A DNA stretch of 64,000 bases from the NCBI GenBank assembly GCA_017450965.1, contig JAFSSQ010000010.1, forward strand, positions 6,424-70,423, given 5' to 3'. The position numbers and the translations under genes are program-made. Of this stretch, positions 20,494 through 54,790 are shown piece by piece (positions within the stretch are counted from its first letter, which is position 1; every line of letters begins with the position of its first letter). Source of the stretch: Clostridia bacterium (GTDB taxonomy: Bacteria; Bacillota; Clostridia; Oscillospirales; CAG-272). A model generated the notes under the pieces. That model did no database searches and had not been told where the DNA came from. It worked only from the letters and a program-made list of their open reading frames with translations.

Positions 20494-20560
20494 CGTTTTT
20501 TCCTCTGTTCTACCTTCCGGGCGGTTTCGCCCGGCGGATCGTTTCAATTGATTTCAGTTT

Positions 20561-20589
20561 ATCATATCACAAACCGGCGGGAAAAGCAA
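20561..20589 (-). promoter_or_regulatory. SigA-type promoter for the phosphoesterase
   Basis: TTGCTT-N17-TATGAT with a TG extension, on the minus strand. Confidence 0.6.
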
Positions 20590-20698
20590 TTTTTTTCTTC
20601 CCGCCCGGGCAACAAGCGGTAAAAAGACGCCAAGAATAGGCAAAAAAGCCGCCGCCGCTTTCCGCTTTGGCATATCTTGCAAAACTGCGGGAAGGCCC

Positions 20699-20727
20699 TT
20701 GCGTTTTCCGCCCGGCGGTGGTATACT
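20699..20727 (+). promoter_or_regulatory. SigA-type promoter for rbsK-SIS
   Basis: TTGCGT-N17-TATACT with extended -10 (TGn). Confidence 0.65.
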
Positions 20728-20766
20728 GGACGCAAAGAAAACGATAACCGAAAAGAGGGAAAGAAT

Positions 20767-21741
20767 ATGACAAAACGGAAACCTCGGATCCTCGTGGCGG
20801 GGAGTTTGGTGATGGACCTGATCTGCTCCGCGCCGCGCTTTCCGCAGAGCGGGGAGACGGTGATCGGCACGGATTTTTCCACCGCGCCGGGCGGAAAAGG
20901 CGCCAACCAGGCGGTCCAGGCCGCCCGCCTCGGCGCCGAGGTCGCGATGGTCGGCAAGATTGGGCGCGACGACTTCGGCCGGCAGATCCTTTCGTCGCTC
21001 CGGGAGTCCGGCGTCGATACGTCGGGAGTGCGCCTCTCGGAGAGCCGCCCCACCGCGATCGGCAATATCCAGCTTGAGGTGACGGAGGCGGGGACCGCCA
21101 ACCGGATCCTCGTCATTCCCGGCGCCAATATGGACTGGGAGGAGCGCGATCTCGCCCTGCTCGAGGAAAAGATCCCCGGCTGCGGGATGCTGATTTTGCA
21201 GCTGGAGATCCCGACGGAGGTCGACCTTGCCGCGGCGCGGATCGCCCGCCGCTACGGCGTTCCCGTGATGCTCAATTCCGCGCCCTCCGCGCCGATCCCG
21301 GAGGAGCTGCTTTCCGGACTTGACTATATCTCGCCGAACGAGCACGAGGCGTACGACCTCACCGGCGTGCGCGTGAGCGACCTTTCCTCCGCCCGCGAGG
21401 CGGCGGATATTCTGCTCCGGCGCGGAGTGAAAAACGTGATCATCACCCTCGGCAGCCGCGGCGCCGTCTTCTCGGACGGGACGCGCTTTCTGCACGGGCC
21501 GTGCGTGGACTTTGCGCCGACCCTCGACCCCACCGCCGCGGGAGACAGCTTCGTCGGCGCGTTCTCCGTCGCCGTCTGCCTCGGCGCGGAGCCGGAGGAG
21601 GCGCTCACCTTCGCCAACCACACCGCGGCGATCACCGTCTCCCGGATGGGCGCGCAGCCCAGTCTCCCCGCGCTGCCGGAGGTAACGGACTTTCTGAAAC
21701 GAAACGGACACGACGTGTCCCGCTATACGGAGGATCTTTGA
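20767..21741 (+). CDS. rbsK: Ribokinase-like PfkB kinase
   Basis: GSLVMD, PGGKGANQAVQAARLG, QLEIP, PNEHE, DPTAAGDSFVGA, AAITVSRMGAQPS. Substrate may not be ribose. Confidence 0.85.
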   Translation: MTKRKPRILVAGSLVMDLICSAPRFPQSGETVIGTDFSTAPGGKGANQAVQAARLGAEVAMVGKIGRDDFGRQILSSLRESGVDTSGVRLSESRPTAIGNIQLEVTEAGTANRILVIPGANMDWEERDLALLEEKIPGCGMLILQLEIPTEVDLAAARIARRYGVPVMLNSAPSAPIPEELLSGLDYISPNEHEAYDLTGVRVSDLSSAREAADILLRRGVKNVIITLGSRGAVFSDGTRFLHGPCVDFAPTLDPTAAGDSFVGAFSVAVCLGAEPEEALTFANHTAAITVSRMGAQPSLPALPEVTDFLKRNGHDVSRYTEDL

Positions 21742-21742
21742 G

Positions 21743-22339
21743 ATGGACGCTGTCGCCAGATTTACCGAAACCGTCCGCAGGGAGCTGGACGCTTTCCTCG
21801 CGGACATGAAAACGGAGGACTTTCTCCCCGCCGCCCGACTGATCCGGGAGGCGGAGGAAGCGGGCGGCCGCCTGCACGTTACGGGGATCGGCAAGCCGGC
21901 GCATATCGCCGCCTACGCCGCCTCCCTCTTTTCCTCCACCGGAACGCCCGCCTACTTCCTGCACGGCACGGAGGCGGTCCACGGCTCCTGCGGGCAGCTC
22001 GCGCCCGGGGACGCGGTGATCTGCATCTCCAACAGCGGGGAGACGGCGGAGCTGAAGGCGACCGCCGCGGCGATCCGCCGCAACGGCTGCAAGGTGATCG
22101 CCGTAACGGGCAACCCGGACTCCTGGCTCGGCCGCTTTGCGGACGTAACGCTCGCCGCGCCCGTCCGGGAGGAGGGCGGACCGCTCAACCGCGCGCCGCG
22201 CGCCTCCTTCCTCGTGGAAACGATCGTTTTGCAGGGGCTCTCGATCGTATTGCAGGAAAAGCGAGGGCTCACCCCGCAGGAGTACGTCCTGCGCCACCCC
22301 GGCGGCTCGCTCGGGCAGCTGCGGGAAAACGAAAAATAA
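21743..22339 (+). CDS. Single-domain SIS sugar-phosphate isomerase, KpsF/GutQ (arabinose-5-phosphate isomerase)-like, no CBS domains
   Basis: TGIGKPAHIA, STGTPAYFLHGTEAVHG, ISNSGET, HPGGSLG. Confidence 0.82.
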   Translation: MDAVARFTETVRRELDAFLADMKTEDFLPAARLIREAEEAGGRLHVTGIGKPAHIAAYAASLFSSTGTPAYFLHGTEAVHGSCGQLAPGDAVICISNSGETAELKATAAAIRRNGCKVIAVTGNPDSWLGRFADVTLAAPVREEGGPLNRAPRASFLVETIVLQGLSIVLQEKRGLTPQEYVLRHPGGSLGQLRENEK

Positions 22340-22360
22340 AAACGCCGCGTTCGCGGCGCA

Positions 22361-22402
22361 AAAGAGGACCGGTCCCCACTGGCGGCGGGGACCGGTCTTT
22401 TC
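22361..22402. terminator. Bidirectional intrinsic terminator
   Basis: 11-bp stem gaccggtcccc/ggggaccggtc followed by tttt, between convergent genes. Confidence 0.8.
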
Positions 22403-24046
22403 TCATTTGTTTAAGGTGATCTCAAGCAAAAAGGTATTGTAGCAAGGATCCCAGGTCGACATCACAAAGGCGATCTTCCGGCCGCCGTCCCGCGAGAGGG
22501 CGGGGCAGCTGAAGCCGCCGTACACGCCCGCCCCGACCGAGGGGAAGGTGATGTCGGCCGAGAGGGCGTAGGGCCCTTCCGGCTTTTTGGCGGTGTAGAG
22601 GTGGAAGACGTTGTCCTTTTTGAAGGAGACGATCCACTCGCCGAGGTACTCGTTATAGAAGATCGTGTTCTCCGATACGCGCGCGTCGATCAGCGGGAAC
22701 TCGCTCCGGATCCCCGCCTCGCCCGCCGTCCAGACGGCGCTGCCGTCCGCGTCGTAGCCGGTGAGGTACTCGTAGGCGGAGAGCGTTTCGATCTTGTCCG
22801 CGTCCACCCGCATCATCCGGGCAAAGCCGAGCCGCCCGCCGGTGATCCCGGTCAGGTAGACCTTGCCGTCCGCGGGGTTGTAGGCGGGCGAGATCTGGCA
22901 GAACTTCGTGTCTCCTTCCCAGCGGATCCCGTCGACGATCTGCCACGTCTTGCCGTCGTCAGCGGATTTGGCGAGCCCGCCGTAGTTGCAGTCCCAGCCG
23001 TTGTCGGTGCTCCACTCGCGCACCGACATAAAGTAGAAGTAGAGGTTATCGCCGAGGGAGATCGCGCCCGTCGGGATCTTCGAATACTCGGTTTTCGGCT
23101 TTTTCATCCCGGGGATCAGCTCGGTCGCAAAGTCGCCGGAGGAGGCGTACATCCCGTCGAAGACGATGCCGTTGGTGTAATCGAGGTCGGTCGTGTAGGC
23201 GGCGGTGTTGGTGCGCCAGCCGTCCTTGCGCTCCCCGCCGGAGAAGGTATCGCCGAAGAAGAACCAGAGCGTGTCCTTGTGCAGAACGGGGAAGCCGAGG
23301 TCAAGCCCGCACACGTTGTAGAGAGAATGGGTGCGGTTGACCGAATACTCGCCCGTCAGCATGGCGATCGTCCTCACGCCCGTCACGGCGCGGAGGGGGG
23401 AGGAGGCGTTCCCGGTCACGGCGGTCGAGATCACGGCGGTATGCAGCTTTTCCACGACCGCGGTCCCCTGCTTTTCGTAGTCGTTGTAGGAGGAGAAACG
23501 GCTGACCGAGAGGGTGCGGCTGAGGGAGAGCCCGTCCCCGTCCCGCTCGAGGCACCGGCCGACCAGCCAGTCGACCGCGTTCAGTACCTCCGCGTCGCTG
23601 CCGCCGAGCAGGTAGATCGCCGTGCGGCCGTCCGTTTCCTCGACGAAAACGGAAAACTCCGTTTCCCGCAGGCGGGTCTCGTTTTTCTCCTTGCGGGAGG
23701 AAAACCCGACGACGATCTCCGCCTCGCCCGGCTCCGGCGTTTCGCGGTCGGTCGAGGCGGCCAGCCGCACCCCGGTCGCGTCCCGGACGTACTCCCGCAG
23801 AGAGGAGACGGCCGCTTTGACGGAGGCGGAGGCGTTATCCGCCCGGATCAGGGTAAAGGCGGAGGCGCCGCCCGAAACGAGCCGGATCCGCCCGTCGGCG
23901 GGCGCGGCGGGAGCCGCCGTTTCGCTTTCCGCCGGAGCGGAGGTCTCACCGGTCGCCGCGGGGGCCTTGTCACAGGCAAGGAGAAAAAGAAAAGGGAAGA
24001 GGGAGATCAGAAAGAGGGAAAACAGTTTCACAGAAAAACGGTTCAT
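22403..24046 (-). CDS. Lipoprotein with N-terminal alpha/beta accessory domain and DUF4185 (GH183-like endo-D-arabinofuranase) domain
   Basis: Lipobox LLAC; GLDLG, FFGDTF, WRTN, IPTGAI, YFYFMSV, S-x-D-x-G-x-T-W box, VSE. Confidence 0.75.
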   Translation of the reverse strand: MNRFSVKLFSLFLISLFPFLFLLACDKAPAATGETSAPAESETAAPAAPADGRIRLVSGGASAFTLIRADNASASVKAAVSSLREYVRDATGVRLAASTDRETPEPGEAEIVVGFSSRKEKNETRLRETEFSVFVEETDGRTAIYLLGGSDAEVLNAVDWLVGRCLERDGDGLSLSRTLSVSRFSSYNDYEKQGTAVVEKLHTAVISTAVTGNASSPLRAVTGVRTIAMLTGEYSVNRTHSLYNVCGLDLGFPVLHKDTLWFFFGDTFSGGERKDGWRTNTAAYTTDLDYTNGIVFDGMYASSGDFATELIPGMKKPKTEYSKIPTGAISLGDNLYFYFMSVREWSTDNGWDCNYGGLAKSADDGKTWQIVDGIRWEGDTKFCQISPAYNPADGKVYLTGITGGRLGFARMMRVDADKIETLSAYEYLTGYDADGSAVWTAGEAGIRSEFPLIDARVSENTIFYNEYLGEWIVSFKKDNVFHLYTAKKPEGPYALSADITFPSVGAGVYGGFSCPALSRDGGRKIAFVMSTWDPCYNTFLLEITLNK

Positions 24047-24146: not shown

Positions 24147-25490
24147 TCAGTTTTCGTTTGCGGAGCGGCAGCGGAAGAAGAGGATCGCAGAGGCAACGCA
24201 CCCGCAGAGAGAAACGATCAGGAGGATAATGGCGTAGACGGGAACAGAGGAGGAGCCGGAGCCGCTGCTCGCGGGGGTCGTTTCCGCGGCGGTCTCGGCG
24301 GGCGCCTTGGTCTCGGCGGCCTGCGTTTCGGCGGGCTTGGTCTCGACGGTCGCCTGGGTCTCCGCCGCGTCCGTTTCACCGGGCGCTGCGGTCTCGGGGG
24401 CGGCCGTTTCGGGCGCTTCGGTCTCGACCGGGACCTTCGACGCGTCGTAGAGGACCTGGTCAAAGCCGGTCGCTTTCGTCAGGAGGTCGGCGTTGGGCGT
24501 CTCCCAGGCGGAGGCGTCCAGGGTAATCCCCTGCGAGAACTTTTCGTGCTCGCCGACGTCGCCGGTGACGATCATTCCCTTTTTCGCGAAGGTGCCGCCG
24601 TTGATCTTCAGGACGGCGGTCCCTTTGATGCTGCCGGAGCCGGCAACGGCGCCGGTGATTTCCGTCGTGTCGATGAAGTCGCCGCCGTTGATGACGACGG
24701 TGGCGTTGCCTTCGACCGTCCCGGTGCCGAGGACGCGGATCGACTTTTTGAAGGTACCGCCGTTGATGGTCAGCAGGACGTCGCCCTTGATCGTGCCGTC
24801 GCCCGCGGCAAAGACTTCCGCGTTGATCTCGCCGCCGTTGATGGTAACGGAAACGCTTCCTTCATTGACGCAGTTGAGCTTCTGGTTGTTCCGGGTGCCG
24901 CCGCGGATCATCTGCCAGGAGCCGCCGTTGATGGTCAGATCGCCGCCGTGCGCGGCGTCCTGCGCGGCGTCGTCGTTACGGCCGGCGGTGATGCCGATGT
25001 AGTTGGAGCTGCCGTCTTTGACGCACTCCACGTCCTCGCCGATCACGACCTTGTTGCCGTTGCAGCAGTAGAGCGAGGTGCTCTTCTGGACGCGGATCTT
25101 CAGATGGTCGAGCGTGTGCGCGCTGTTGAAGTAGAGCCACATATCGGAGAGCAGCGCGGCTTCCGCCGTCGTACGGTAGTCGGTCCCGTTCCAGACGCTG
25201 GTCAGCGTATAGGCGCCCGTGGCGGTTTCCGGCGTGCGGTAGTCGGAGCCGTCGGCGGAGCGGGAGAGGGTCAGCGGTCCGCAGATCACGATCATGCCGC
25301 CGTTCGGCAGCGCGGCGTAAGCGGCGTTCAGAGAGGCCTTCGCCTTCTCGGGGGAGGAGCCGTCGGAGAGGTCGCTTCCGTTATCGCTGATAAAGCAGAC
25401 GTCATCCGCCGCCGCCGCGGGCGCGGCGGCGAGGGGGACGAGGAGCGTCAGGACAAGGAGAAGAGAGAGAAGATAACAAATCTTTTTCAT
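24147..25490 (-). CDS. Secreted, C-terminally anchored surface protein with a probable beta-solenoid domain
   Basis: Signal peptide; FISDNGSDLSDGSSPEKA start motif; repeated (L/V)xINGG units; PETAAP linker; C-terminal TM plus basic tail; AAAGGAG RBS. Confidence 0.7.
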   Translation of the reverse strand: MKKICYLLSLLLVLTLLVPLAAAPAAAADDVCFISDNGSDLSDGSSPEKAKASLNAAYAALPNGGMIVICGPLTLSRSADGSDYRTPETATGAYTLTSVWNGTDYRTTAEAALLSDMWLYFNSAHTLDHLKIRVQKSTSLYCCNGNKVVIGEDVECVKDGSSNYIGITAGRNDDAAQDAAHGGDLTINGGSWQMIRGGTRNNQKLNCVNEGSVSVTINGGEINAEVFAAGDGTIKGDVLLTINGGTFKKSIRVLGTGTVEGNATVVINGGDFIDTTEITGAVAGSGSIKGTAVLKINGGTFAKKGMIVTGDVGEHEKFSQGITLDASAWETPNADLLTKATGFDQVLYDASKVPVETEAPETAAPETAAPGETDAAETQATVETKPAETQAAETKAPAETAAETTPASSGSGSSSVPVYAIILLIVSLCGCVASAILFFRCRSANEN

Positions 25491-25522
25491 GATAGGTACT
25501 CCTTTCTGAAATCCCGGCGGGA

Positions 25523-27037
25523 TCAGTTGCCGAGTGTTTCGCGGAGCTTGACGTACTCGGCTTTCGCGGCGTCCACGTTCGCGGCGTAGACAGAGGCGAA
25601 GCCGTTGGTTCCGCGGATCGCTTCGGTGCGCAGATTGGTGATGATCTTAGCGGGATCGAGGGTAACGCCGAGGTCAAAGGTGCGATCCTGCAGGATCAGG
25701 GTCAGCATGTCGACGTTGAGGTCGTGGTCGCGCACGCTGCGGGTCCCGAAGACGTGATCAAAGAACACCGTCTTGATGTCGCGCTGATTGAGATAGCCCA
25801 TCGCGTTGATCACGGCGACGGTCTCGGTCTGATGCTCGGTCGCGCCGTAGGGGATCGTAACGATCGACATCTGCGGGCTCTGGATCAGAGAGTTGTAGCT
25901 TTCCTGCTTTTCGTCGAATTTGGGGAAGGGCAGGAAGCCGTAGTCGTCCTGCATATCCCAGAGCTGGAAGGAGCCGCAGATCGTCTCGGCGAAGAAGAGG
26001 AAGCGGCCGGTGGAGAAATAGATGCCGGATTTGCCGGCCAGGCTCGTGCCGCCGGAGTAGGAGGTGTCGTGCACGTTGAGGGTGGTGTCGTGAGAGAAGA
26101 CGCGGGTCAGCTGCTCCAGAGCGGCGACCTTCCGGTCGGTCAGCTCGAAGAGCGTCGGCCAGTTCTCGTCGTCGGACGCCGCGCAGGTCTCGTCCATGCC
26201 GTTGAGCGTGTACTCAAAGGTCTGGTTGCCGCAGACAAGGCCGTACTGGTCGTATTCGTAATCCATCTTGTCGTTGGCGTTCAGGTCATCGGTGCCGGCG
26301 GCGATCATTTCGTTCCACTTGTCGATCGTCCACTTGCCCTCGCGGACGAGCTGGAAGGCGTCCTCGAGGTTGAGAGTCTTCCCGAGCGTGTAGTTGTACA
26401 TGATGCAGGCGGTGGATTTCCAGGCCATGATGTTCATTTCGCCCATCGCGAAGTAACGGTACTTGCCGCCCCAGTTGAGGGTGTCGTTGACCGTCTTGTT
26501 CCACCAGGGATCGTCGAAGTTGAGCCCTTCCACCTCGTTGAGGTTGGTGACAAGCGCGCCGGAGAGGAGTTTGGTCATCTGGGTCCCGTTGGAGAAGTAG
26601 GAGTCGTAGGTGTGGTCGCCGGAGTTGACCTCCCGGCGGATCGTGTCGCCCGCGTTGGTGTGGGTCTTCTGGTCGTGGAGAATGGTGCAGTCAAAGGTGT
26701 CTTCGATCTCGCTGTTGCGGCGGTAGAGCGCCTCGGAGAGGACTTCTCCGTCCGAGTTGCCGGCGATATCGTAGTTGATCCACCAGTTCGTGTCGCCGCC
26801 GGTCAGGAAGTAGATGGTGGCGCCGTCAAAGTTCTTTTTGCCGAATTTTTCCTCAAGAGAGAGGTTCGAGGCCGCCGCGTTGTCGGTCTCCGTGGAGCCG
26901 GCGGGCGTCGTGCCGGAGGGGCCGGCCGGAGAAGGATTGCGGGCCGCTCCCGCGATGATGACCGTCATCCAGACGGCCACGGCGAGGAAGACGACAAAGA
27001 GCGCGGCGAAGATAGGGCTGCTTTTTTTAGAAAGCAT
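25523..27037 (-). CDS. Extracellular solute-binding protein (carbohydrate ABC SBP-like)
   Basis: N-terminal TM anchor; WWNKTVN, GKWTIDKW, DDYGFLPFPKFDEKQ features typical of clostridial sugar SBPs; AGGAGG RBS. Confidence 0.8.
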   Translation of the reverse strand: MLSKKSSPIFAALFVVFLAVAVWMTVIIAGAARNPSPAGPSGTTPAGSTETDNAAASNLSLEEKFGKKNFDGATIYFLTGGDTNWWINYDIAGNSDGEVLSEALYRRNSEIEDTFDCTILHDQKTHTNAGDTIRREVNSGDHTYDSYFSNGTQMTKLLSGALVTNLNEVEGLNFDDPWWNKTVNDTLNWGGKYRYFAMGEMNIMAWKSTACIMYNYTLGKTLNLEDAFQLVREGKWTIDKWNEMIAAGTDDLNANDKMDYEYDQYGLVCGNQTFEYTLNGMDETCAASDDENWPTLFELTDRKVAALEQLTRVFSHDTTLNVHDTSYSGGTSLAGKSGIYFSTGRFLFFAETICGSFQLWDMQDDYGFLPFPKFDEKQESYNSLIQSPQMSIVTIPYGATEHQTETVAVINAMGYLNQRDIKTVFFDHVFGTRSVRDHDLNVDMLTLILQDRTFDLGVTLDPAKIITNLRTEAIRGTNGFASVYAANVDAAKAEYVKLRETLGN

Positions 27038-27061
27038 CGTGGTTTCCTCCTTTTTTTTGTT

Positions 27062-29203
27062 TTATTTGCGGAAAAGAACAACTTTCTTTTCCTTGGCTTT
27101 CAGGGTGAGGGGGAAGGAAAGACGCTTGCCGCTCTCCGCGTCGTAGGCCTTCAGGGAGGCGGGCAGGGAGAGGAGCTCGGTATCCAGGACGGGGGAGACG
27201 GTCTCGTCGTGGTAAGCGGTGTTGTAAAGGTGCAGGATCGCGCTCCCGCCCCCGGCGGCGCGCTTCACCCCGCGGCGGACGGTCTCCGGGATCCCGGAGA
27301 GGCCGACGGTGTCGGTAAAGGTGCCGTCCCGGTAGATCTCCGGATACTTCGCCCAGAGCGCGTGCAGACGCTTGGAGGTGGGGTAAACGTAGGGGTGCTC
27401 CAGCAGGGGAGAGAAGACGGAGAAGGCGTAGCCCGCCATATTGTCTCCGATCTCGCCGCTGGCCTGCATACCGAGCATCGGGCGGTGCATTACGTAGGTA
27501 AGCGCCTCCGGACGCGCGTAAGAGGCCTTGGGGTTGCCCCATTTCCGCCACCAGTGCATGCACATGATGTCGATGTACGGATCGTAGGCGTCGCCCACGC
27601 CCTCGCAGCCGCAGATGTAATCGTCCGGACGGTATTTTTTGATCATCCGGTAGACCTTCGAGAAGAAGCGGCGATAGCCCTCGTTGAACGCGGTGGCCGG
27701 CGTTTTGTGGCCGTGGGTGCGGTCGTAGCAGAGGTAGGCGGGCATCGTCATCAGCTCGTCAAAGTAGATCCCGTCCGCGCCGAGCTTCATCACCGTTTCC
27801 ATCGCGCGCACCGCGGCGTTCGTCCAGGCGTCGGACATCGGGCACTGCGCGACGAAGTACTGGCGCGAGGTGCCGGGATACCGCTCGATCCAGACGTTGC
27901 CGTCCGGCTTCTTGATCGCGCAGTCGATGCCGATGCGGTCGGCGACCTTGCCGGGGCGGCGGAACCATTTCGACTCGCGGTCGGCGATGTGGACGTTGAC
28001 GTAGAAGATCGCCTTCATCCCCGCCTCGTGGACCTGGCGGATCGCCTCGCGGAGGCCTTCCTTGCCGCCGAGCTCCTTGACCGGCTCGTAGTCGGGATAC
28101 CAGGCGTCAAGCCCGCCGACGTGCCAGCCGATGAAGAGGACGAGGTCGGAGCCGCCTTCGTCCCTTGCGCGGACGGCGGCCTTGAGGAAGGTGTTAAAGT
28201 CCGGGGAGCCCATCCCGTCCGCGTTCAGGCAGCGGCAGGACATATCGGCGGGCGCCGTCACGGTCTTGGCCGGCGCGTCCTCGGTGTATTTGAGATGGTA
28301 ATAGGAAGGGAAGGAAACGCACTGATACACCGCCATCCCGCGGACGTTCTTTCCCGCCTGCGTCCGGCCGGGACCCTTTTCCGGGGCCGAAGCGCGGAAG
28401 CGGTTGTAAACGTCGGCGGCGAAATGCCAGTCGCCCTCGCCGGCGCCGAGGCAGATCGGAGCGAGCGTGGAGCCCTGACCGGGCGCGAGGAAAGGCCAGT
28501 GGCGGATGTAGAGCTTGCCGCTCTTTTCAAAGCCGAACTGCTTGTAGGAGTGGTCCTTGTCGTGGTGGCCGAGATAGAGGTGCTCCTTCTCGTTGTAAAC
28601 GGCGCAGCACTGCGCGGAGAAGGGAACGGGGTAGTTGGTGACGATCACGTTTTCGGTATACGTGTCGTTGTCGCCGATGGTGGAACGGAACTGGATGCGG
28701 TTCTCGGTCGTGAAGTCGCTGCCCTCGGCCGGGGAACGGAAGGCCTTTTTGAAGAGGGAGCCGTCCTGGATCGGCCAGTAGAGGGAGTCGTCCCCGCCTT
28801 CGACCCCGGAGAGGTCGGGATAGCGGAGACTGACGAGCACGCCCTTTTCGGAGCGGTTCTCCGTCCGGAGAGAGGCCTCGACGCAGCGCCCGCCTTCGGT
28901 GAAGCGGAGTTCTTCCTCGAAGACGACGAGCATGCCGTTTTCCGCAACGGTGCGGCGGATCACGAGACGGTCCTTTCCTTTCTTTTCAAAAGCGGCGGGC
29001 CGGCCCTTCACCGTGAAGGTCGCGGCGGTCTCGGCGTCGGGACGGCTGTCCCAGATGTCAGACACGCCGGAGTCAAACACAAAGCTGATCCAGCTGTCGG
29101 CGCGCCGCAGGTACTCCCGGCCGGTGGTCTTGTTCTTGAGACCGGTCAGGCACCCGTCCGAGTTCCGGAAAGACAAGCGAAGATACTGAGATTCAAAAAT
29201 CAT
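27062..29203 (-). CDS. Cytoplasmic DUF6259-like putative glycoside hydrolase (TIM barrel)
   Basis: IGW...DAWYPDY, LGGKEGLREAIRQVHEAG, YVN, QCP, DGIYFDEL, EG...D. No signal peptide. ATG 29203 with AAGGA RBS. Confidence 0.6.
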   Translation of the reverse strand: MIFESQYLRLSFRNSDGCLTGLKNKTTGREYLRRADSWISFVFDSGVSDIWDSRPDAETAATFTVKGRPAAFEKKGKDRLVIRRTVAENGMLVVFEEELRFTEGGRCVEASLRTENRSEKGVLVSLRYPDLSGVEGGDDSLYWPIQDGSLFKKAFRSPAEGSDFTTENRIQFRSTIGDNDTYTENVIVTNYPVPFSAQCCAVYNEKEHLYLGHHDKDHSYKQFGFEKSGKLYIRHWPFLAPGQGSTLAPICLGAGEGDWHFAADVYNRFRASAPEKGPGRTQAGKNVRGMAVYQCVSFPSYYHLKYTEDAPAKTVTAPADMSCRCLNADGMGSPDFNTFLKAAVRARDEGGSDLVLFIGWHVGGLDAWYPDYEPVKELGGKEGLREAIRQVHEAGMKAIFYVNVHIADRESKWFRRPGKVADRIGIDCAIKKPDGNVWIERYPGTSRQYFVAQCPMSDAWTNAAVRAMETVMKLGADGIYFDELMTMPAYLCYDRTHGHKTPATAFNEGYRRFFSKVYRMIKKYRPDDYICGCEGVGDAYDPYIDIMCMHWWRKWGNPKASYARPEALTYVMHRPMLGMQASGEIGDNMAGYAFSVFSPLLEHPYVYPTSKRLHALWAKYPEIYRDGTFTDTVGLSGIPETVRRGVKRAAGGGSAILHLYNTAYHDETVSPVLDTELLSLPASLKAYDAESGKRLSFPLTLKAKEKKVVLFRK

Positions 29204-29498
29204 AACGTTATCCTTTGATCCTTCTTTAAGATATGGTACGCTGAGTCTATTGTAGCATCGGCGAAAAAAGAGGGGAATATCATTTATTGGGCGATCGCTT
29301 GTCATTTCTTGCCGTCGGACGGGGGGAAGGGCCGCGCCCGGCTCCGGGAGCGGGGAGATCGGCCGAAAAAAGACAAAGCGATATATAAAATATAGAAATA
29401 ATAGGAAAAACCGGATTAAAGAAGATAAAAAGGGAGAGATAGAGAAAAAGGTTTTTTGTCTTTTTCTTTACAAAAATTGGCATATCAAGGAGAAAGTC

Positions 29499-29527
29499 TT
29501 GCGTTTACGCGCGAGCGGTGCTATTCT
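29499..29527 (+). promoter_or_regulatory. SigA-type promoter for the PfkB-ADH-FSA operon
   Basis: TTGCGT-N17-TATTCT with extended -10; closely resembles the promoter at 20699. Confidence 0.6.
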
Positions 29528-29561
29528 TTTGCTGAACAATCAGGCAAGGAGGCAGACCCTC

Positions 29562-30509
29562 ATGGCGACAGTTTACGGATTCGGTACGGCGGCGGTGGAT
29601 TTCCGCATCCGCACCGCGGATTTCGGCGATCTTTACAAGGACAAGCTCCTGGCGCAGACCATCGCGGAGATGGGCGGCGGCGCCGTGGCAAACTTCCTTT
29701 CCCAGGTCTCCCGTCTCGGCGGCAAGACCGCGTTTCTCGGCAAACTCGGCAGGGACGTGCCGGGGAAGAAGATCGTTTCTCTCCTGGAAGCGGAGGGGAT
29801 CGACTGCTCGCATATCCTGTATTCCGACACGCTCTGCTCTCCCTTCAACGTGGCCGCCTATTCCGGCGAGGGGATGCGCCGCCGCTGCGGCTTTCTGCTC
29901 CCGAACAGTCTTGCGTCGCTTGACGGGGAGGATATTTCCGCTCTGACGGAGGCGATCCGCCCGGAGGATCTGGTGATGGTCGAGATCGGAGAGATCCCGC
30001 CGGCCGCCGTGCTGTCCTTTATGCGGAAGGTGCGCGCGAAAGGGGCCAAACTCTTTATCGACGTGGACCTCGACCCCATCCGCCAGTGCGGCTTTACCCC
30101 AAAAGAGTTCGACGAGGTCTGCCGGCTCTCCGACGTCCTGATCCCGAACGTGGTCTCCCTCGGGGCGCTCTACCCCGATATGACGGCGCCCGCTTTGGCG
30201 GAAACGCTGTTTAAGATCTACGAAAAGCCCTGCGTGGTTTCCGCCGGACGGGACGGCGCCTTCTTCGCGGACCGGCCCGGTCCCGCGCAGAACGTCCCGG
30301 TCTACGAGGTCGAGGTGGTCGACACCGTCGGCGCGGGGGACGCGTTCCACGGCGGATTTGTTTACGGAATGCTTTCCGGCCTGCCGATCGGAGAGGCGGT
30401 GCGCTGCGGCTGCGTCTGCGGCGCGCTCAACTGCCGTACCTTCGGCGCGCGGGAAGGGATGGCGCGCAGGGAAGACCTGGACCGCGCCCTGAAAGGAGAA
30501 AACGGATGA
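29562..30509 (+). CDS. PfkB family carbohydrate kinase
   Basis: GGGAVAN, GKLGRD, PN, VDTVGAGDAFHGG, CGALNC...GAR. AGGAGG RBS. Confidence 0.9.
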   Translation: MATVYGFGTAAVDFRIRTADFGDLYKDKLLAQTIAEMGGGAVANFLSQVSRLGGKTAFLGKLGRDVPGKKIVSLLEAEGIDCSHILYSDTLCSPFNVAAYSGEGMRRRCGFLLPNSLASLDGEDISALTEAIRPEDLVMVEIGEIPPAAVLSFMRKVRAKGAKLFIDVDLDPIRQCGFTPKEFDEVCRLSDVLIPNVVSLGALYPDMTAPALAETLFKIYEKPCVVSAGRDGAFFADRPGPAQNVPVYEVEVVDTVGAGDAFHGGFVYGMLSGLPIGEAVRCGCVCGALNCRTFGAREGMARREDLDRALKGENG

Positions 30510-31717: not shown

Positions 31718-31772
31718 TCCCGCTGAAACCGCTCTCAAAAAAATTGATATATTTTTCAGGAGGAAACAAGTT

Positions 31773-33451: not shown

Positions 33452-33475
33452 AGCTATCCCCCTTCATCTTTACTT

Positions 33476-33504
33476 ATTATAGCACAAAGGACGCAAAAAG
33501 TAAA
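33476..33504 (-). promoter_or_regulatory. Promoter of the Fic gene
   Basis: TTTACT-N17-TATAAT with extended -10. Confidence 0.55.
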
Positions 33505-33580
33505 GATTTCAGGCAAAAAATCCTCTGAAAAGGAAAGATTCCCTCCGGCCGCGGCGAAACCGCGCCCGGAGGGAGGGAAG

Positions 33581-33620
33581 AAGCCCCCGGCTGCCCGATG
33601 AACGAGCCGGGGGCTTTTGC
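33581..33620 (-). terminator. Hairpin ending the RM-island operon
   Basis: aagcccccggct/agccgggggctt stem; a second hairpin lies at 33539-33579. Confidence 0.6.
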
Positions 33621-33638
33621 TTTTATACGTTATAATTA

Positions 33639-34403: not shown

Positions 34404-34411
34404 TTTTTCAT

Positions 34412-38205: not shown

Positions 38206-38305
38206 TTTTATTATCTCCAATTCTTACTATTCGTTCAGTATTTGAGTATTTCAACGGATAGAACAAGTTTCATTTTGCAGAGAGCGGCGAGGACAACGCG
38301 GTAAA

Positions 38306-42130: not shown

Positions 42131-42160
42131 AATAGGTTCCGACCCTTCCGACGCGCAGGA

Positions 42161-43177: not shown

Positions 43178-43179
43178 AA

Positions 43180-44124: not shown

Positions 44125-45009
44125 TCAGGGGGTCTGTTTGCCGCGCAGCTCCCGGAGGTAAGCGGAGGGACTCTGCCCGCACTGCATCTTGAAGAAACGG
44201 CTGAAGGAATAGATATCGGGGAACCCGAGCAGATCTCCCACCCGGGAGGGGGAAAGTCCCTCCTCCAGCTTCTTTTTGGCGTATTCGGAGCGCAGGGAAT
44301 TGCAGTATTTGATCAGCGAAACGCCGTAGGTGGAGCGGAACTTTTTGACCAGATAGAACTTGTTGTAGTGGAACTGCTCCGAGAGGTCGTCCAGATTGAA
44401 GCGGGAGTTGAGGAAGTTTGCGTCGATAAAACTCTTGACGCTGCTGATGAAGTCCGGCTCCTCGTGCGCGAAGCTGCGCAGCTCGGAGATGTTGTCGCGG
44501 ATGATCATGCGCAGAAGCGCCGTCATCTGCTCCTTGCAGATCAGCTGATAGAGGACCGGCTTGTTGTGATAGGTGCGGATCACGTCCTCCACCAGAGAGA
44601 GGAAGACCTTGCGGTTGCTGACGTTGAGGAAGGGGTATTCCAGCTCCCCGCCGAAAAAGTCCGGCTGGACGCAGCGCCGCTCCTCCTCGGTGAAATCGGC
44701 GAGGTTTTTGTAAGAGACGTAGGAAAGCTCGCTGGAGGGCGTGTAGGTCACGTCGAAATGGATATGCGCGTGGAGCGGAGAGGAGTCCGGCGGAACGACG
44801 ATCGTGTGGTTGACGCCGGGCGGGATCAGGATGATATCGCCCTGCTTCGTTTCGTAGGTCTTTTCGTTCATCAAAAGAGTAAAGCCGCTGGAGATGAACC
44901 AGATCAGCTCGTAGTCAAAGAGCGCCCGCTCCTTGAAGACAAGTCCGGGACGGAGGGTCGAGGTGAGCGCGGCCCGGACGTAAGGGGAAACGGCGTTGAC
45001 GTTCAGCAT
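44125..45009 (-). CDS. AraC/XylS family transcriptional regulator
   Basis: N-terminal cupin (YELIW, GDIILIPPG); C-terminal double HTH ending GFPDIYSFSRFFKMQCGQSPSAY. Confidence 0.93.
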   Translation of the reverse strand: MLNVNAVSPYVRAALTSTLRPGLVFKERALFDYELIWFISSGFTLLMNEKTYETKQGDIILIPPGVNHTIVVPPDSSPLHAHIHFDVTYTPSSELSYVSYKNLADFTEEERRCVQPDFFGGELEYPFLNVSNRKVFLSLVEDVIRTYHNKPVLYQLICKEQMTALLRMIIRDNISELRSFAHEEPDFISSVKSFIDANFLNSRFNLDDLSEQFHYNKFYLVKKFRSTYGVSLIKYCNSLRSEYAKKKLEEGLSPSRVGDLLGFPDIYSFSRFFKMQCGQSPSAYLRELRGKQTP

Positions 45010-45036
45010 ACTAAAACCCTCCTTTCGGACAAGCGG

Positions 45037-47718
45037 TCATTTTTTTGAAACTTCGATCTCCCACACAAACGACTGATAGAGGGTCGCCCGGGAGGTGATG
45101 ACCATCATGTAGCGGCCGCCCTCCCGCGTGTAAACGGAGGAGACGCGCGGCTCGTAGACCGCGCCCATCACGCCGCCCTGCTTGATGATCAGGACCGGAT
45201 CCGACCAGACGCCGTCCAGGGTCTTGGCCGTCCGCATCACGATACTGTTTTTCAGGTCGCCCGCGTAGGCGGTGCAGTAGAGGATGACCCACTCGCCGAG
45301 GTATTCGTTATACATCACGCCGACGCCGCCGACCGCGGCTTCGACCGCCGCGTAGTTGCTCATCATCGCGTCGTACCCGCGCTCGAAGATCCCGTTGCCG
45401 TTTTCGTCCCGCCCGGTCATGTACTCGTAGGCGGAGAAATCCTCGATCTGAGACGCCTTTACGCGCATGATGCGGCAGGCGCCCTTGCGCCCGCCGGGAA
45501 CGCCGAAGACGTAGACCCACTCCCCGTCAAGGACGGGATAGAGCTGGGCAAGCCCGTAGAGGGGGACCTGCGCCACGGGATCGGAAACGTCCGTTCCCGC
45601 CGGCCAGCGCAGATCGGAGGAGATCTCCCAGCTGCGGCCCATATCGGTCGACTTGGCGAGCGCGCCGTAGTTGCAGGGCCAGCAGCCGTTGCGGCCCGTG
45701 GTGCCCCACGCGTTGACCGACATATAGTAGAAATAGAGGGTATCGCCGATCTTCAGCCCGCCCGTCGGGATCTTCGACTCCTCCGTTCCCTTTTTGTGCA
45801 GGGAGGGGAGGAACTCTCCGGCAAAGGGCTTGCTCTGGTAGCTGTCGCCCATGTAAAAGCCGTCGATCCGGATCCCGTCGGTGTAGTCAAAGTCGCTGGT
45901 AAAGGCAAGACTGTTCGCGCGCCAGGTCTTGCCGAGGCCGTCTTCGGAGTTGCTGTCCCCGAACGCCAGCAAAACCGAGTCGCCGCAGTCGATCATATAG
46001 CCGCCGCCCACGCGCGCGATATCGTAGTTCGAGAGGGTGCGGTTGTCTGAGTATTCCCCGGTAAGGAGGGAAACGAAGCGCAGACTTTCGACCCGGTAGA
46101 GGGAATAGGCGGGGTCGTCCAGGGTGCGCGATTTTTCGCTGTAAAGACCGGCGAGCTGCGCCGGGCTGTTTTCCCGCTTTTTCTGCTCGGCGATCAGGGC
46201 GTCGACGTCCGCGATGCGGGTCTTCGCGTCGGGGCCGAGCGCGTCTTTCTCCGCGTCGGTCAGCGGCGTCGTCGCGGAAAGCGTAACGGAGGGCGGATCG
46301 GTATAGCGGATCCCGTTTGCGGTGAGGGCGGGCGCCCGTACGGCAAGGCAGGAGGCGTCGTTTTTCTCGGTGACGGTAAAGGCGCTGCCCGTGAGGGATA
46401 CGGCGCTTCCGAGGAGGAGACGGGCGCCGGGGTTGCCCTTGGCGACGGTCCCGGCGGGGAAGCTCCCGCCCGTGACGCAGAGGACCGTCTTCGCGTAGGT
46501 GGAAACGGTGATCGCGTCGGAGGTTACCTGGCGGACGGCCAGATCCTTTGAGAGGAAGGTGCCGCCGGTGATCTTGAGCGTGACGCTGCCGGTGACCGCG
46601 ACGGGATTGCGGTTCGGGTTGCTCTCGGTGCGGGAGAGGAGGTAGACCGGACCATCAAAGGTCCCGCCGCTGATCTCCATATAGACCGTGCCGGCGACGC
46701 TGTTCATCCCGGAGGCGGAGTTGAAATCCTGTCCCGAGGAGGCAATAAAACGTCCGCCCTTGACATAAACGCAGAAGGAGACGCCCTCGTCGACCGTGCC
46801 GAACGCGGACTTCGCGTCCATCCGGCTGTTGCCGCCGCGCAGATACTGCCAGGTCCCGGATTTCACCGTAACGGCGGCGTCCTTGTGGCAGCCGATCTGG
46901 TAGGCGTTCATATGGAGCGAGGAGGGGGCGTTGTAGCCGCCGAGCAGCGCGATATAAGTCGAAACGCCGCTCGCCCGGGAACACTCAACGTCCGCGCCGA
47001 CCGTAACGTTGTTGTACTGGAAACAGAAGAAGAGGTTGTTCTTTTCGGCGGAGACGGCCAGTCCCTCGAGAAGATAGTCGCCGTAGAAGTTCGCGTCGGC
47101 GGAGAAGGAGAGCTTCGCGCCGCTTGTCTTCCGGTAGTCGATCCCGTCCCGGACCGAGGTCAGGGTAACGGTCGCTTCGTTGGAGGGAAAGTAGTAGGTC
47201 TCGGGGAAGGTAAGCGGGCCGCAGACGACGACCGTGCCGCCCGTTTTTTTGGTTTTGCCGAGGCCGTCGGCAAGGGCGGCGGCGTTCTCGGGCGAGGAGC
47301 CGTCCTTTTTCCCGGCGCCTTTCTCTGTGACGAAGACGACCGGCGCGGCGGGATCCCCGCCCTGCAGCCCTTCGGGCGCTTCGGTCTCCGGCGCCGCCGT
47401 TTCGGGCGCCGCGGTCTCCGCCGATCCGCCCTGAGGGGGGGCGGTCTCCGGCGTTTCGGTCTCTGCGGGCTCCGTTTCCCGGCCGGCCGTCTCCGGCGCG
47501 GCGGTTTCCGTCTCACCGGTCTTTTTCGTTTCCGGCGCGGCGGTCTGCGGGACCTCCGTTTGTTCGGCGGTCCCGGCGGGCAGAGGCGCTTTTCCCGTTT
47601 CCGCCGTTTCTGACGAGACGGGGGAGGACGGCGCGGCGGGCGCGCAGCCGATCGGCAGAAGGGAGCAGAGCAGGACCAAAGCAAGCAAAGAGTGTCCGGT
47701 GCGACTCGTTCGTTTCAC
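45037..47718 (-). CDS. Lipoprotein: beta-solenoid-like domain + DUF4185/GH183-like domain lacking predicted catalytic residues
   Basis: Lipobox PIGC, ETAAP linker, DGSSPENA domain; FGD, WRAN, IPTGG, YYMSV, STDMGRSW. GxDLG replaced by RVGGG and VSE by VGG. Confidence 0.72.
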   Translation of the reverse strand: MKRTSRTGHSLLALVLLCSLLPIGCAPAAPSSPVSSETAETGKAPLPAGTAEQTEVPQTAAPETKKTGETETAAPETAGRETEPAETETPETAPPQGGSAETAAPETAAPETEAPEGLQGGDPAAPVVFVTEKGAGKKDGSSPENAAALADGLGKTKKTGGTVVVCGPLTFPETYYFPSNEATVTLTSVRDGIDYRKTSGAKLSFSADANFYGDYLLEGLAVSAEKNNLFFCFQYNNVTVGADVECSRASGVSTYIALLGGYNAPSSLHMNAYQIGCHKDAAVTVKSGTWQYLRGGNSRMDAKSAFGTVDEGVSFCVYVKGGRFIASSGQDFNSASGMNSVAGTVYMEISGGTFDGPVYLLSRTESNPNRNPVAVTGSVTLKITGGTFLSKDLAVRQVTSDAITVSTYAKTVLCVTGGSFPAGTVAKGNPGARLLLGSAVSLTGSAFTVTEKNDASCLAVRAPALTANGIRYTDPPSVTLSATTPLTDAEKDALGPDAKTRIADVDALIAEQKKRENSPAQLAGLYSEKSRTLDDPAYSLYRVESLRFVSLLTGEYSDNRTLSNYDIARVGGGYMIDCGDSVLLAFGDSNSEDGLGKTWRANSLAFTSDFDYTDGIRIDGFYMGDSYQSKPFAGEFLPSLHKKGTEESKIPTGGLKIGDTLYFYYMSVNAWGTTGRNGCWPCNYGALAKSTDMGRSWEISSDLRWPAGTDVSDPVAQVPLYGLAQLYPVLDGEWVYVFGVPGGRKGACRIMRVKASQIEDFSAYEYMTGRDENGNGIFERGYDAMMSNYAAVEAAVGGVGVMYNEYLGEWVILYCTAYAGDLKNSIVMRTAKTLDGVWSDPVLIIKQGGVMGAVYEPRVSSVYTREGGRYMMVITSRATLYQSFVWEIEVSKK

Positions 47719-47763
47719 GGCGTTCTCCTTTTCAATCCGGATCGGGAAATGCGTTATCCGTTT

Positions 47764-50205
47764 TCAGCCTTTTTTGGAGAGTTCGATTTCCCAGATGATG
47801 GAATTGTAGATATCCCAGCGCGAGGTGATGAGCATCATATAGCGCCCGCCCTCCCGCGTGTAAGCGGAACAGACGCGCGGCTCGTAGACGGCGCCGAAGG
47901 TCGCCTGCGACATAACGAGGACCGCCTCGGACCACTTGCCGTCAAGGGTCTTCGCGGCGCGCATCACGATGCTGTTTTTCAGGCTGCCCGTCTCCGGCGT
48001 GCAGTAGAACATCAGCCATTCGCCGAGGTATTCGTTGTACATCACGCCGACGCCGCCGACGCACTTGTCCACCGCGGCGCAGTTGGTCATCATCGCCTTC
48101 TCGCCGCGCTCGAAGATCGCGTTGCCGTTTTCGTCCCGCCCGGTCATATACTCGTAGGCGGTGAAGTTTTCGATCTGGGACTGTTTCACGCGCATCAGAC
48201 GGCAGTAGCCCCTGCGTCCGCCCGGTACGCCGAAGAAGTAGACGAAATCTCCGCTGAGGACGGGATAGAGCTGCGCAAAGCCCCATTCCGGGATCTCCTC
48301 GACGGGGTCGTCGACGTCGGTCCCCGCCGGCCAGCGCAGGTCGGAGGGCGTTTCCCAGCTGCGGCCGAAGTCGGTCGACTTGGCGATCCCGCCGTAGTTG
48401 CAGGGCCAGCAGCCGTTCCGGTCGGTCTCCCGCCAGCTCGCGACGGACATATAGCAGAAGTAGAGGGTATCGCCGATCTTTATCCCGCCCGTCGGGATCT
48501 TCGACTCTTCGGTCTTGTTCTTCGTGTCGTGCCCCGAAAGGAGGAACTCGCCGGAGAACGGCGCGCTCTGATAGGTATCGCCCATATAGAAGCCGTCCAG
48601 CGTGATCCCGTCGGTGTAGTCCCGATCGGTCGTGAAGGCGAGGGCGTTCGCGCGCCACGGTTTGCCGAGCTCGCCCTCGGGGTTGCAGTCGCCGAACGCG
48701 AGGAGGGTCGTATCGCCGCAATCGATCATATAGCCGCCGCCCGCGCCCGCGATATCGTAGTTGGTGATCGTTTTATTGATCGAATACTCGCCCGTCAGCA
48801 TCGAAACGAACTTCACGCTGCGCAGCGCGTCGAGGGAGTAGAGTTTATCGGGGTCGCGCAGACGCATCGAGGACGCCGGCGTGTTCTGTTCCAGCTTCCG
48901 GACCTTCGCCAGCGCGGCGGCGGTCTCGGAGATCAGGCTCTTTTCCTCTTCCGCGGTGAGGGGGCCGGTTTTCGGCTTCGTCTCGGGGAAGGGAGGCTCG
49001 GTGTAGGAAGGGGCGTTCGCCTTCAGGGTCGGCGCGGCGATCTGATCGGCGCTGCCGGAGAGGGTCTTTGTAAAGGACTTCGCGGTCACGCCCACGCCGT
49101 CGCTGAGGAGGACGCTGCTGCCCGATTCGCCCGTGGCGACCGTTCCCGCCGGGAAGGCGCCGCCGGAGACGCAGAGAACCGTTTCCGCGTGAGAGGAGAG
49201 GGCGGTCTTGTCGGAGGTGGTCTGGCGGACGGCCAGCTCCTTCGAGCGGAAGGTGCCGCCGGTGATCTTCAGCGTGACGCTGCCGGTAACGGACACGGGA
49301 TAGAGCTCCGTGTTGCTCCCGGTGCGGGAGAGGAGATAGACCGGGCCCTCAAAGGTCCCGCCGCTGATCTCCATATAGACCGTACCGGCGACGCTGTTCA
49401 TGCCGGAGGCGGAGTTGAGATCCCGTCCCGAGGCGGCGGAAAAGCTCCCGCCCTGCACGAAGATCGCAAAGGTGACGCCCTCGTCCACGGTGCCGAAGGT
49501 GGACTTCGCCTGGGTGCGGCGGTTGCCGCCGCGCAGGTACTGCCAGGAGCCGCCCTTCACCGTGACGGCGGCGTCCGCATGGCAGCTGACCTGTTCGACG
49601 TTGCGGTAGGCGCTGGAGGGGACGTTGTAGCCGCAGATCAGCGCGATGTCGGTCGAAACGCCGGACGCGCGGGTGCACTCTACGTCCGCGCCGAAGGTCA
49701 CGTTGTTGTACTGGAGGCAGAAGAGCAGGTCGGCTTTCTCGGCGGAGATCGTCAGGCCGTCAAAGAGATAGTCGCCGTAAAAGAAGGCGTTCGAGGAGAA
49801 GGCGAGCTTCGCGCCCGCCGCCGTCCGGTAGTCGACGCCCTCCCAGACGGAGGTCAGGGTAACGGAGGCGCCGTTGGAGGGGAAGAAATAATCTTCGTCA
49901 AAGGAAAGCGGCCCGCAGACGACGACGGTGCCGCCCGCTTTTTTGGTTTTGCCGAGGCCGTCGGCGAGGGTGGCGGCGTTCTCGGGCGAGGTGCCGTCCT
50001 TTTCGCCGGCGCCGTCCTGCGTCACGAAGACGGTCGCCGCTTCCGCGGCAAAATCGTCCTCGGGAAGGGCGGTGGTGCTGTCCTCCGGCGGGACGGACGG
50101 CTTATCGCAGGAGCCGAGCGCCGCGGCGCAGAAAAGGAGCGAAAGGATCATCGAAAGGATCCGGAAAAGCGGAGACGTGCGGGAGGCGTTTTTTGGTTGC
50201 TTCAT
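47764..50205 (-). CDS. Tandem paralog: lipoprotein with beta-solenoid-like + DUF4185/GH183-like domains lacking predicted catalytic residues
   Basis: Lipobox LGSC; colinear with 45037-47718; GAGGG and VGG at the catalytic positions. ATG 50205 with GGAG RBS. Confidence 0.72.
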   Translation of the reverse strand: MKQPKNASRTSPLFRILSMILSLLFCAAALGSCDKPSVPPEDSTTALPEDDFAAEAATVFVTQDGAGEKDGTSPENAATLADGLGKTKKAGGTVVVCGPLSFDEDYFFPSNGASVTLTSVWEGVDYRTAAGAKLAFSSNAFFYGDYLFDGLTISAEKADLLFCLQYNNVTFGADVECTRASGVSTDIALICGYNVPSSAYRNVEQVSCHADAAVTVKGGSWQYLRGGNRRTQAKSTFGTVDEGVTFAIFVQGGSFSAASGRDLNSASGMNSVAGTVYMEISGGTFEGPVYLLSRTGSNTELYPVSVTGSVTLKITGGTFRSKELAVRQTTSDKTALSSHAETVLCVSGGAFPAGTVATGESGSSVLLSDGVGVTAKSFTKTLSGSADQIAAPTLKANAPSYTEPPFPETKPKTGPLTAEEEKSLISETAAALAKVRKLEQNTPASSMRLRDPDKLYSLDALRSVKFVSMLTGEYSINKTITNYDIAGAGGGYMIDCGDTTLLAFGDCNPEGELGKPWRANALAFTTDRDYTDGITLDGFYMGDTYQSAPFSGEFLLSGHDTKNKTEESKIPTGGIKIGDTLYFCYMSVASWRETDRNGCWPCNYGGIAKSTDFGRSWETPSDLRWPAGTDVDDPVEEIPEWGFAQLYPVLSGDFVYFFGVPGGRRGYCRLMRVKQSQIENFTAYEYMTGRDENGNAIFERGEKAMMTNCAAVDKCVGGVGVMYNEYLGEWLMFYCTPETGSLKNSIVMRAAKTLDGKWSEAVLVMSQATFGAVYEPRVCSAYTREGGRYMMLITSRWDIYNSIIWEIELSKKG

Positions 50206-50278
50206 TTTTGGTTTTTCTCCTTGGGTTATTCGCAGAAAGAGCGGATTTTCCCTCTTCATCACTATCTTACCCTATTTC

Positions 50279-50474: not shown

Positions 50475-50550
50475 GGCATTATCATGCGGAAAGATGAACC
50501 GGAGAGCGGCGCCGCGGTTCCGCGGCGCCGACCGGAAAAGGAGAAGCAGT

Positions 50551-52698: not shown

Positions 52699-52710
52699 AA
52701 GAGGTAGGAT

Positions 52711-53007: not shown

Positions 53008-53019
53008 ACGGGCGGCGCG

Positions 53020-54774: not shown

Positions 54775-54790
54775 CAAGGAGGAGAGAGAT

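Follow-up and report, generated by a model that had tools for sequence, protein, structure and literature searches.

Which sugar is handled by a kinase and a sugar-phosphate isomerase that are encoded side by side in Clostridia bacterium (Oscillospirales; CAG-272), and in which direction does the isomerase work? The two genes lie in a 64,000-nucleotide stretch of contig JAFSSQ010000010.1 (assembly GCA_017450965.1, positions 6,424 to 70,423 of the forward strand), referred to here as the window. The genome is of a ruminant-gut type; word shares in sheep and bovine gut metagenomes are small and are given no weight as to habitat. The first encodes a ribokinase-family (PfkB) kinase of 324 aa (20767..21741, + strand), a candidate D-arabinose 5-kinase, and the second a KpsF-type SIS isomerase of 198 aa (21743..22339, + strand), a candidate catabolic arabinose-5-phosphate isomerase (API). 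We consider it probable that the pair forms a catabolic entry module in which D-arabinose is converted to D-arabinose 5-phosphate (A5P) and then to D-ribulose 5-phosphate (Ru5P). This route, put forward in the preliminary description of the locus, finds support in comparative genomics, namely in the coupling of the two genes, the residues of their products and the recurrence of GH183 and GH172 genes around them. It is from gene structure, protein families, residues, clades, fusions and gene context that we infer which sugar the kinase takes, where this sugar comes from and what reaction the isomerase carries out.

In the proposed pathway, secreted GH183 endo-arabinanases, together with GH172 or other exo-enzymes encoded elsewhere in the genome, would free D-arabinofuranose from the D-arabinan of actinobacterial cell walls. 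The kinase would then phosphorylate the O5 of the furanose to give A5P, and the SIS enzyme would convert A5P to Ru5P by the usual ene-diol mechanism involving Lys51, His80, Glu103 and Glu144 as well as His185 contributed by a neighbouring subunit. Finally, Rpe and RpiB would lead Ru5P into the pentose phosphate pathway.

The two genes look like a two-gene transcription unit because a strong hairpin at 22367-22397, with 10 G-C pairs among its 13, is located in the 63-bp spacer (22340..22402) between the SIS gene and the convergent GH183 gene; this hairpin is predicted to mark the end of both convergent transcription units. The kinase gene runs from ATG 20767 to TGA 21739-21741, and only base 21742 separates it from the SIS gene, whose ATG is preceded at about 10 nt by GGAGG inside the 3' end of the kinase gene. 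The pair is predicted to be translationally coupled. Re-reading of the open reading frames (ORFs) returned the same coordinates and 1-bp spacing as had been described at the outset. On the 5' side, an intergenic region (20548..20766, + strand) divides the kinase gene from a divergent metallophosphoesterase gene and contains an AGAGGGA ribosome-binding site before ATG 20767. A simple scan found no sigma-70 consensus 5' of the kinase, which is uninformative for the promoter.

With regard to the isomerase, the protein has SIS as its sole domain (75.5 bits, with overlapping SIS and SIS_2 matches in Pfam). It matches the KpsF/GutQ model TIGR00393 with 129.4 bits over model positions 1-151 of 268, and matches NF008141 with 127 bits over positions 29-200. 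As only the first 151 positions of the KpsF/GutQ model are covered, the protein has no CBS pair, and the absence of this CBS half explains why the whole-protein cut-off of 203.7 is not reached. The tandem CBS domains of the KdsD/GutQ/KpsF type are thus missing from this 198-aa protein, as they are from known single-domain APIs, and its earlier designation as CBS-less and KpsF-like is confirmed. Its best solved relatives are 5uqi (E=5.5e-33, residues 29-191), 2xhz (the SIS domain of E. coli KdsD; 6.2e-27) and 3etn (1.5e-26), and its nearest characterised relatives are all APIs. The single-domain APIs 5uqi/5vhu (198 aa), which we take to be the metV-island protein c3406 of E. coli CFT073, and B. 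fragilis 3etn resemble it in length, in their single SIS domain and in all five catalytic residues (one Lys, two His and two Glu). Another single-domain enzyme, Clostridium tetani CtAPI, is referred to Cech (2017) in a passage of PMC11301363.

The residues K59, H88, E111, E152 and H193 of E. coli KdsD, which are catalytic in that enzyme, correspond to K51, H80, E103, E144 and H185 here. They are invariant in all 57 clade members that we aligned, in KdsD numbering, with 21 canonical sequences, and in the canonical set as well. The Lys and both His residues noted in the preliminary description were therefore correctly identified, and E111 and E152 can be added to them. The surrounding loops are a different matter. 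G84T, D90S, M93Q and T161R occur in 57/57 clade members and in 0/21 canonical sequences, and S60P in 50/57 and 0/21, respectively. Whereas 5uqi, 2xhz and 3etn read GKS (GA S in the 2xhz chain) and HGDLG, the clade reads GKP, THGS-x-GQ and APR-x-S, and the SIS protein has none of the canonical API loop motifs GKS, HGDLG(M) and APT(S/A)S. GxGKP and VHGSCG were found in 117-120 of the 120 closest homologues. In an exhaustive search of representatives, matches with E below ~1e-38 mostly carried GxGKP with HGS-x-G, and those beyond it GKS with HGDLG. The clade is monophyletic (SH-aLRT 100) on a long branch, and the HGDLG-type KdsD-like sequences that were sampled stand apart from it on the tree. 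Judged from alignment and tree, the replacement of GKS and HGDLG by GKP and HGSCG, already reported for this protein, is a clade signature and not a chance variation, and the SIS protein belongs to a distinct clade of API-like isomerases that have a single domain and are coupled to a kinase, designated here by its GKP/HGS/Q/R residues.

These changes raise the question whether the clade still acts on A5P. They sit two and five residues past the catalytic His and in Ser/Thr-rich loops, and in other SIS enzymes such loops bind phosphate. Another furanose or sugar phosphate, such as a keto- or deoxy-sugar phosphate, or a fructofuranoside or sugar-acid product, would agree with a signature absent from the 21 canonical APIs that includes the loss of an Asp two residues past the catalytic His and the gain of an Arg. 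We regard such a changed substrate as unlikely: the five catalytic residues are intact in a protein whose characterised relatives are all APIs, and in phosphate binding the gain of Arg161 may make up for the loss of Ser60.

The kinase belongs to PfkB (212 bits, Pfam) and is 37-45% identical to solved ribokinases. It passes the ribokinase equivalog TIGR02152 narrowly (309.2; cut-off 299.65) and fails a second ribokinase model, NF008353 (264.5; cut-off 341). The PfkB fold, the GGKGANQ motif, the equivalent of E143 and the catalytic D255 are shared with E. coli RbsK (PDB 1rkd) and the solved ribokinases. Among the residues that we take to contact ribose in 1rkd (N14, D16, G42, K43, N46, E143 and D255), all are present except N14, which is Val. 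Human ribokinase is likewise without Asn at this position, and Val there therefore does not settle the choice between ribose and arabinose. Throughout the SIS-linked kinase clade the residue is Val or Met, and A50Q, Q128L, T250P and T256S are specific to the clade. With polar ligands conserved and clade signatures this subtle, the sugar of the kinase cannot be fixed from sequence.

Phylogeny is more informative on the separateness of these kinases. The SIS-linked kinases and one orphan copy, in genome G021, form a single clade (SH-aLRT 99) that includes neither E. coli RbsK nor any of 24 other ribokinase-like genes from this order, and since the SIS-linked kinases branch separately they are not orthologous with rbsK genes. 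Both kinds of kinase occur within one genome in G122 and in the genome of locus L012, and both L012 copies pass TIGR02152. This stands in contrast to E. coli RbsK, as the kinase here belongs to a clade tied to SIS genes and has no rbsACB transporter beside its gene. When the other ribokinase-like genes of the order were examined with seeds of E. coli RbsA, RbsB, RbsC and RbsD, none had an rbs-like transporter next to it, so that context could not define 'true' ribokinases there. In its own genome the kinase of the pair is the sole ribokinase-like gene, the next best match being 29% identical. The operon-like row of L012 (2972-10597) contains the second ribokinase-like kinase, a FucU-like mutarotase (78.9 bits) and a CUT2 monosaccharide ATP-binding cassette (ABC) importer, followed by the clade kinase and SIS genes.

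The coupling of kinase and isomerase extends well beyond this order, and the pair is conserved or fused across phyla. In a set of 62 non-redundant loci with the SIS clade, mostly one per species, a PfkB kinase lies within 300 bp or is fused in 43, and 21 of these 43 are fusions. In group A, the Firmicutes branch that includes the window, the clade kinase is directly beside the SIS gene in 21/21 loci. Cultured carriers of the module include Lientehia hominis, Pseudoflavonifractor phocaeensis and an Oscillibacter. Many of the clade's representatives are fusions, of the types PfkB-SIS (~530-610 aa), DHDPS-PfkB-SIS (895 aa) and DHDPS-SIS. Elsewhere in the clade, loci L049-L067 (Myxococcota, Binatia, Spirochaetes and others) have a DHDPS-family gene followed by a PfkB-SIS fusion in whose kinase half K43 is Val or Leu and E143 is Gln, and this half probably takes a different substrate. 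A further branch (L027, L032-L038, L043, L047 and L056; Atopobiaceae, Enterococcus and others) carries a DeoR regulator, EIIA/EIIC-Gat or mannose-type components of the phosphotransferase system (PTS), a DHDPS-like gene and an Eda-type aldolase.

Such tight coupling argues against a kinase product that is a central metabolite such as ribose 5-phosphate, for a product of that kind would need no dedicated isomerase. This bears on the simplest alternative, in which the kinase is a plain ribokinase and the pair serves the use of D-ribose, with the SIS protein as an extra ribose-5-phosphate isomerase or in some unrelated role. The pass of TIGR02152, the conserved D16, G42, K43, N46, E143 and D255 and the lack of another close ribokinase homologue in the genome favour it, as does an RbsD/FucU-family gene found 3' of the pair in 10 relatives, although these RbsD-like proteins fall under both the RbsD and the FucU cut-offs. 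We nevertheless hold ribose use to be improbable. The genome already has RpiB and would gain little from coupling an isomerase to the supply of ribose 5-phosphate, the clade kinases are separate from the other ribokinase-like genes with which they coexist in G122 and L012, and no known ribose-releasing enzymes are nearby, whereas GH183, GH172 and DHDPS contexts recur.

The neighbouring genes vary by lineage, and wherever they are interpretable they indicate D-arabinose. In the window, the gene convergent to the pair (22403..24046, - strand; start most likely 24046) encodes a GH183 (DUF4185) homologue with a signal-peptide-like N-terminus, which is proposed to provide D-arabinose oligomers. The preliminary description had this adjacent gene feeding the pair; the DUF4185 assignment is real (210 bits) and the family is GH183, but the gene is convergent and not co-transcribed with the pair. 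The activity of GH183 is that of an endo-D-arabinanase, and the family is known only as such (PMC10115798; PMC10509167). A GH183 gene stands beside the pair also in same-genus relatives, in which the gene order of the GH183 operon is the same. The genome holds five GH183 matches, of which three fall in the window. GH172, which like GH116 comprises exo-D-arabinofuranosidases, has two to three matches, on contig C60 and not in the window.

The module occurs with GH183 or GH172 in this genome and in at least seven other loci. A human-gut-type relative (L007) has an AraC regulator ahead of a kinase-SIS-GH172 row, in L015 and L021 a GH172 gene adjoins the pair, and in L039 (Acidobacteriota) a kinase-SIS fusion is followed by GH172. 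In a horse-gut Bacilli genome (L030), an AraC regulator is followed in one operon by a kinase-SIS fusion, an ABC importer (SBP_bac_8 with two permeases), GH172, a gene for an 826-aa protein and two GH183 genes. In genome G046, of the same order, GH172 and SIS form a two-gene operon behind a divergent AraC regulator (L098, 8197-9875), and in G017 GH172 likewise precedes the clade SIS gene (L097, 8295-10214). No clade kinase was found in the G046 and G017 genomes; each has one ribokinase-like gene, a 37-39% relative that lies at another site. Of 151 sampled genomes of the order, 6 carry the SIS clade, and GH172 is present in 5/6 carriers versus 24/145 non-carriers, these genomes being related and not independent.

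The same contexts have to be weighed for a substrate other than A5P. GH172 also includes alpha-D-fructofuranosidase and difructose anhydride (DFA) enzymes, a GH32N protein adjoins the module in L001, and other clade branches have PTS, DHDPS and Eda aldolase genes or kinases without K43 and E143, all of which would suit it. Fructose 6-phosphate, however, requires no isomerase, and GH183 has no activity on record other than that on D-arabinan.

The genome as a whole, assembled to 98% completeness, is consistent with a catabolic direction. No match to KdsA (TIGR01362) or to CTP_transf_3/KdsB was found anywhere in it, which extends to the entire genome the earlier remark that genes for Kdo (3-deoxy-D-manno-octulosonic acid) are absent from the window. 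For this reason a biosynthetic A5P role is unlikely, and a function of the SIS protein in Kdo or capsule biosynthesis was rejected. Running the SIS reaction from Ru5P to A5P, for a Kdo-like or D-arabinose-containing surface glycan, would correspond to the canonical role of APIs, and the first 18 kb of the window do hold capsule or teichoic-acid genes, with a CDP-glycerol glycerophosphotransferase and other envelope genes upstream of the pair. We judge this exceedingly improbable, as a divergent gene separates the pair from the envelope genes, relatives keep the module with catabolic genes, transporters and AraC regulators and not with envelope genes, and a kinase that makes A5P would be redundant. 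Nor was a Fucose_iso_C match found in the genome, and the route commonly assumed for D-arabinose, which begins with fucose isomerase, is therefore not encoded, in keeping with the bypass proposed at first. RpiB and Rpe are both present, giving Ru5P an exit to central metabolism. RpiA was not found; with RpiB present, the SIS protein was rejected as a stand-in for a missing ribose-5-phosphate isomerase.

Several observations weigh against a D-arabinose entry module. The kinase passes the NCBI ribokinase model, has all polar ribose ligands of RbsK bar N14 and has no ribokinase-like companion in the genome. In the isomerase, D90S, M93Q, T161R and S60P affect positions next to the catalytic His and in a loop that presumably binds phosphate, so that the substrate could differ from A5P. 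The GH183 gene is not in the same transcript as the pair, and the 24 non-carrier genomes with GH172 manage without the module. A genome of the same family, G021, has two GH172 genes and a lone clade kinase (L102, 9377-10360; 53% identical), and no clade SIS gene was found in it at E<=1e-30. Lastly, a row of genes at 29499-32486 (+ strand) encodes a second PfkB kinase of 336 aa together with a 403-aa Fe-alcohol dehydrogenase and a 237-aa protein of the transaldolase/FSA family. Aldolases of the FSA type can interconvert A5P with glycolaldehyde and glyceraldehyde 3-phosphate, and this operon could be the real D-arabinose route or one parallel to the pair.

A second kind of neighbourhood may widen the significance of the kinase-SIS pair. 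In L020 (4655-11846), Pfam matches verify a row of TRAP (tripartite ATP-independent periplasmic) transporter DctPQM, DHDPS-family aldolase, kinase, SIS, RbsD/FucU-family protein and alpha/beta hydrolase, and the same row from TRAP and aldolase to the RbsD-like protein is deduced for L023 (2538-8776) from similarity and gene sizes. The type of alpha/beta hydrolase seen in L020 is also found 3' of GH172 in L007. TRAP systems carry carboxylates, and the DHDPS-family aldolase of this context fits neither the DapA nor the NanA model. These loci fit a candidate Kdo catabolic operon, in which the aldolase would cleave Kdo to pyruvate and D-arabinose and a pyranase would then supply the furanose for the 5-kinase. 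D-arabinose as the one product that would account for the GH183/GH172 and the TRAP-aldolase contexts alike is in our view the best reading, and this speaks further against a changed substrate of the SIS clade. Somewhat more tentatively, and with the balance tilting slightly against it, we suggest that the module might be the shared trunk of D-arabinan breakdown through GH183 and GH172 and of a Kdo catabolism to which no genes are attached, in which uptake would be by TRAP or PTS and a DHDPS-family aldolase would act on Kdo (to pyruvate and D-arabinose) or on Kdo 8-phosphate (to pyruvate and A5P). If so, it would provide genes for both D-arabinokinase (EC 2.7.1.54) and Kdo aldolase (EC 4.1.2.23) and would explain an isomerase of the 'lipopolysaccharide type' in bacteria without an outer membrane, and the wider SIS clade would offer a testable entry to Kdo catabolism by gut and predatory soil bacteria.

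The enzyme kinds themselves are known, and what is new is best read as a kinase-coupled clade that serves as a catabolic entry module for D-arabinose. A D-arabinokinase (EC 2.7.1.54) and a phosphoarabinoisomerase are said to have been described by Volk in Propionibacterium pentosaceum in about 1960-62, and that route likewise leads from D-arabinose to A5P and on to Ru5P. The literature searched yielded no sequences assigned to these activities, and a 2007 survey of orphan activities included EC 2.7.1.54 (PMC1940265). With E. coli KdsD, GutQ and KpsF, which have two CBS domains and belong to Kdo biosynthesis, the SIS protein shares homology of the SIS domain and the residues equivalent to K59, H88, E111, E152 and H193. 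It differs from them in lacking the CBS pair, in being encoded by a genome without a Kdo pathway, in its proposed catabolic direction and in S60P, G84T, D90S, M93Q and T161R.

D-arabinose is a signature sugar of mycobacterial and corynebacterial cell walls, and the enzymes that cut D-arabinan were reportedly found only in 2023. A route of kinase followed by isomerase would bear on the fate of the released D-arabinose in Gram-positive degraders. In the D-arabinan loci of Dysgonomonas gadei (PUL42; PMC10115798) and Microbacterium arabinogalactanolyticum (PMC10509167), GH183 endo-arabinanases occur alongside exo-enzymes, importers and genes for downstream processing of the sugar. For the latter step these papers indicate an enzyme of the fucose-isomerase type, or an 'isomerase and a kinase'. 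We read this phrase as isomerisation first and phosphorylation second; the Shimokawa supplements do not name the families of this isomerase and kinase. In contrast to those two loci, no Fucose_iso_C gene was found here, and the order would be kinase and then phosphosugar isomerase. In the literature searched we found no report linking an A5P isomerase with GH172, none on a gene for a D-arabinose 5-kinase of bacteria or on a gene cluster with Kdo aldolase, and none assigning genes to the kinase-then-A5P-isomerase route or to Kdo catabolism. If the proposed function of the pair is correct, it would supply genes for an activity that was still an orphan in 2007, it would give arabinose-5-phosphate isomerases a physiological role in bacteria that make no Kdo, and the clade kinases should no longer be annotated as 'ribokinase'.

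The remaining features of the window surround the pair on its 3' side. Upstream of the convergent GH183 gene on the - strand, three more genes of the GH183 operon (24147..29305) encode proteins of 447 and 504 aa (24147-27037), neither with a Pfam match, and a glycosidase-like DUF6259 protein of 747 aa (27062-29305). The 447-aa and 504-aa proteins have about 20 and 11 paralogues, respectively, across the 2.07-Mb genome. The 747-aa protein, the product of the first gene of the operon, is DUF6259/DUF5696-like with weak similarity to GH66/GHL6, and it is possibly an exo-acting glycosidase. Farther along, an AraC regulator and two large GH183 paralogues of 893 and 832 aa, located by tblastn, occupy 44125..50262 (- strand), and a 1550-aa ORF without a Pfam match (50482-55134, - strand) adjoins the paralogues. 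The regulator gene (44125-45009) follows a cluster at 38886-44061 (- strand) that encodes a PFL-like glycyl radical enzyme of 780 aa with an activase for such enzymes, a DmpG-like aldolase and an acetaldehyde dehydrogenase resembling DmpF. Between this cluster and the second PfkB kinase operon lies an island of low GC content (32543-38220; ~40% vs ~62% elsewhere) that encodes a Fic/HTH protein, a type III restriction helicase-like protein and an N6/N4 DNA methylase.

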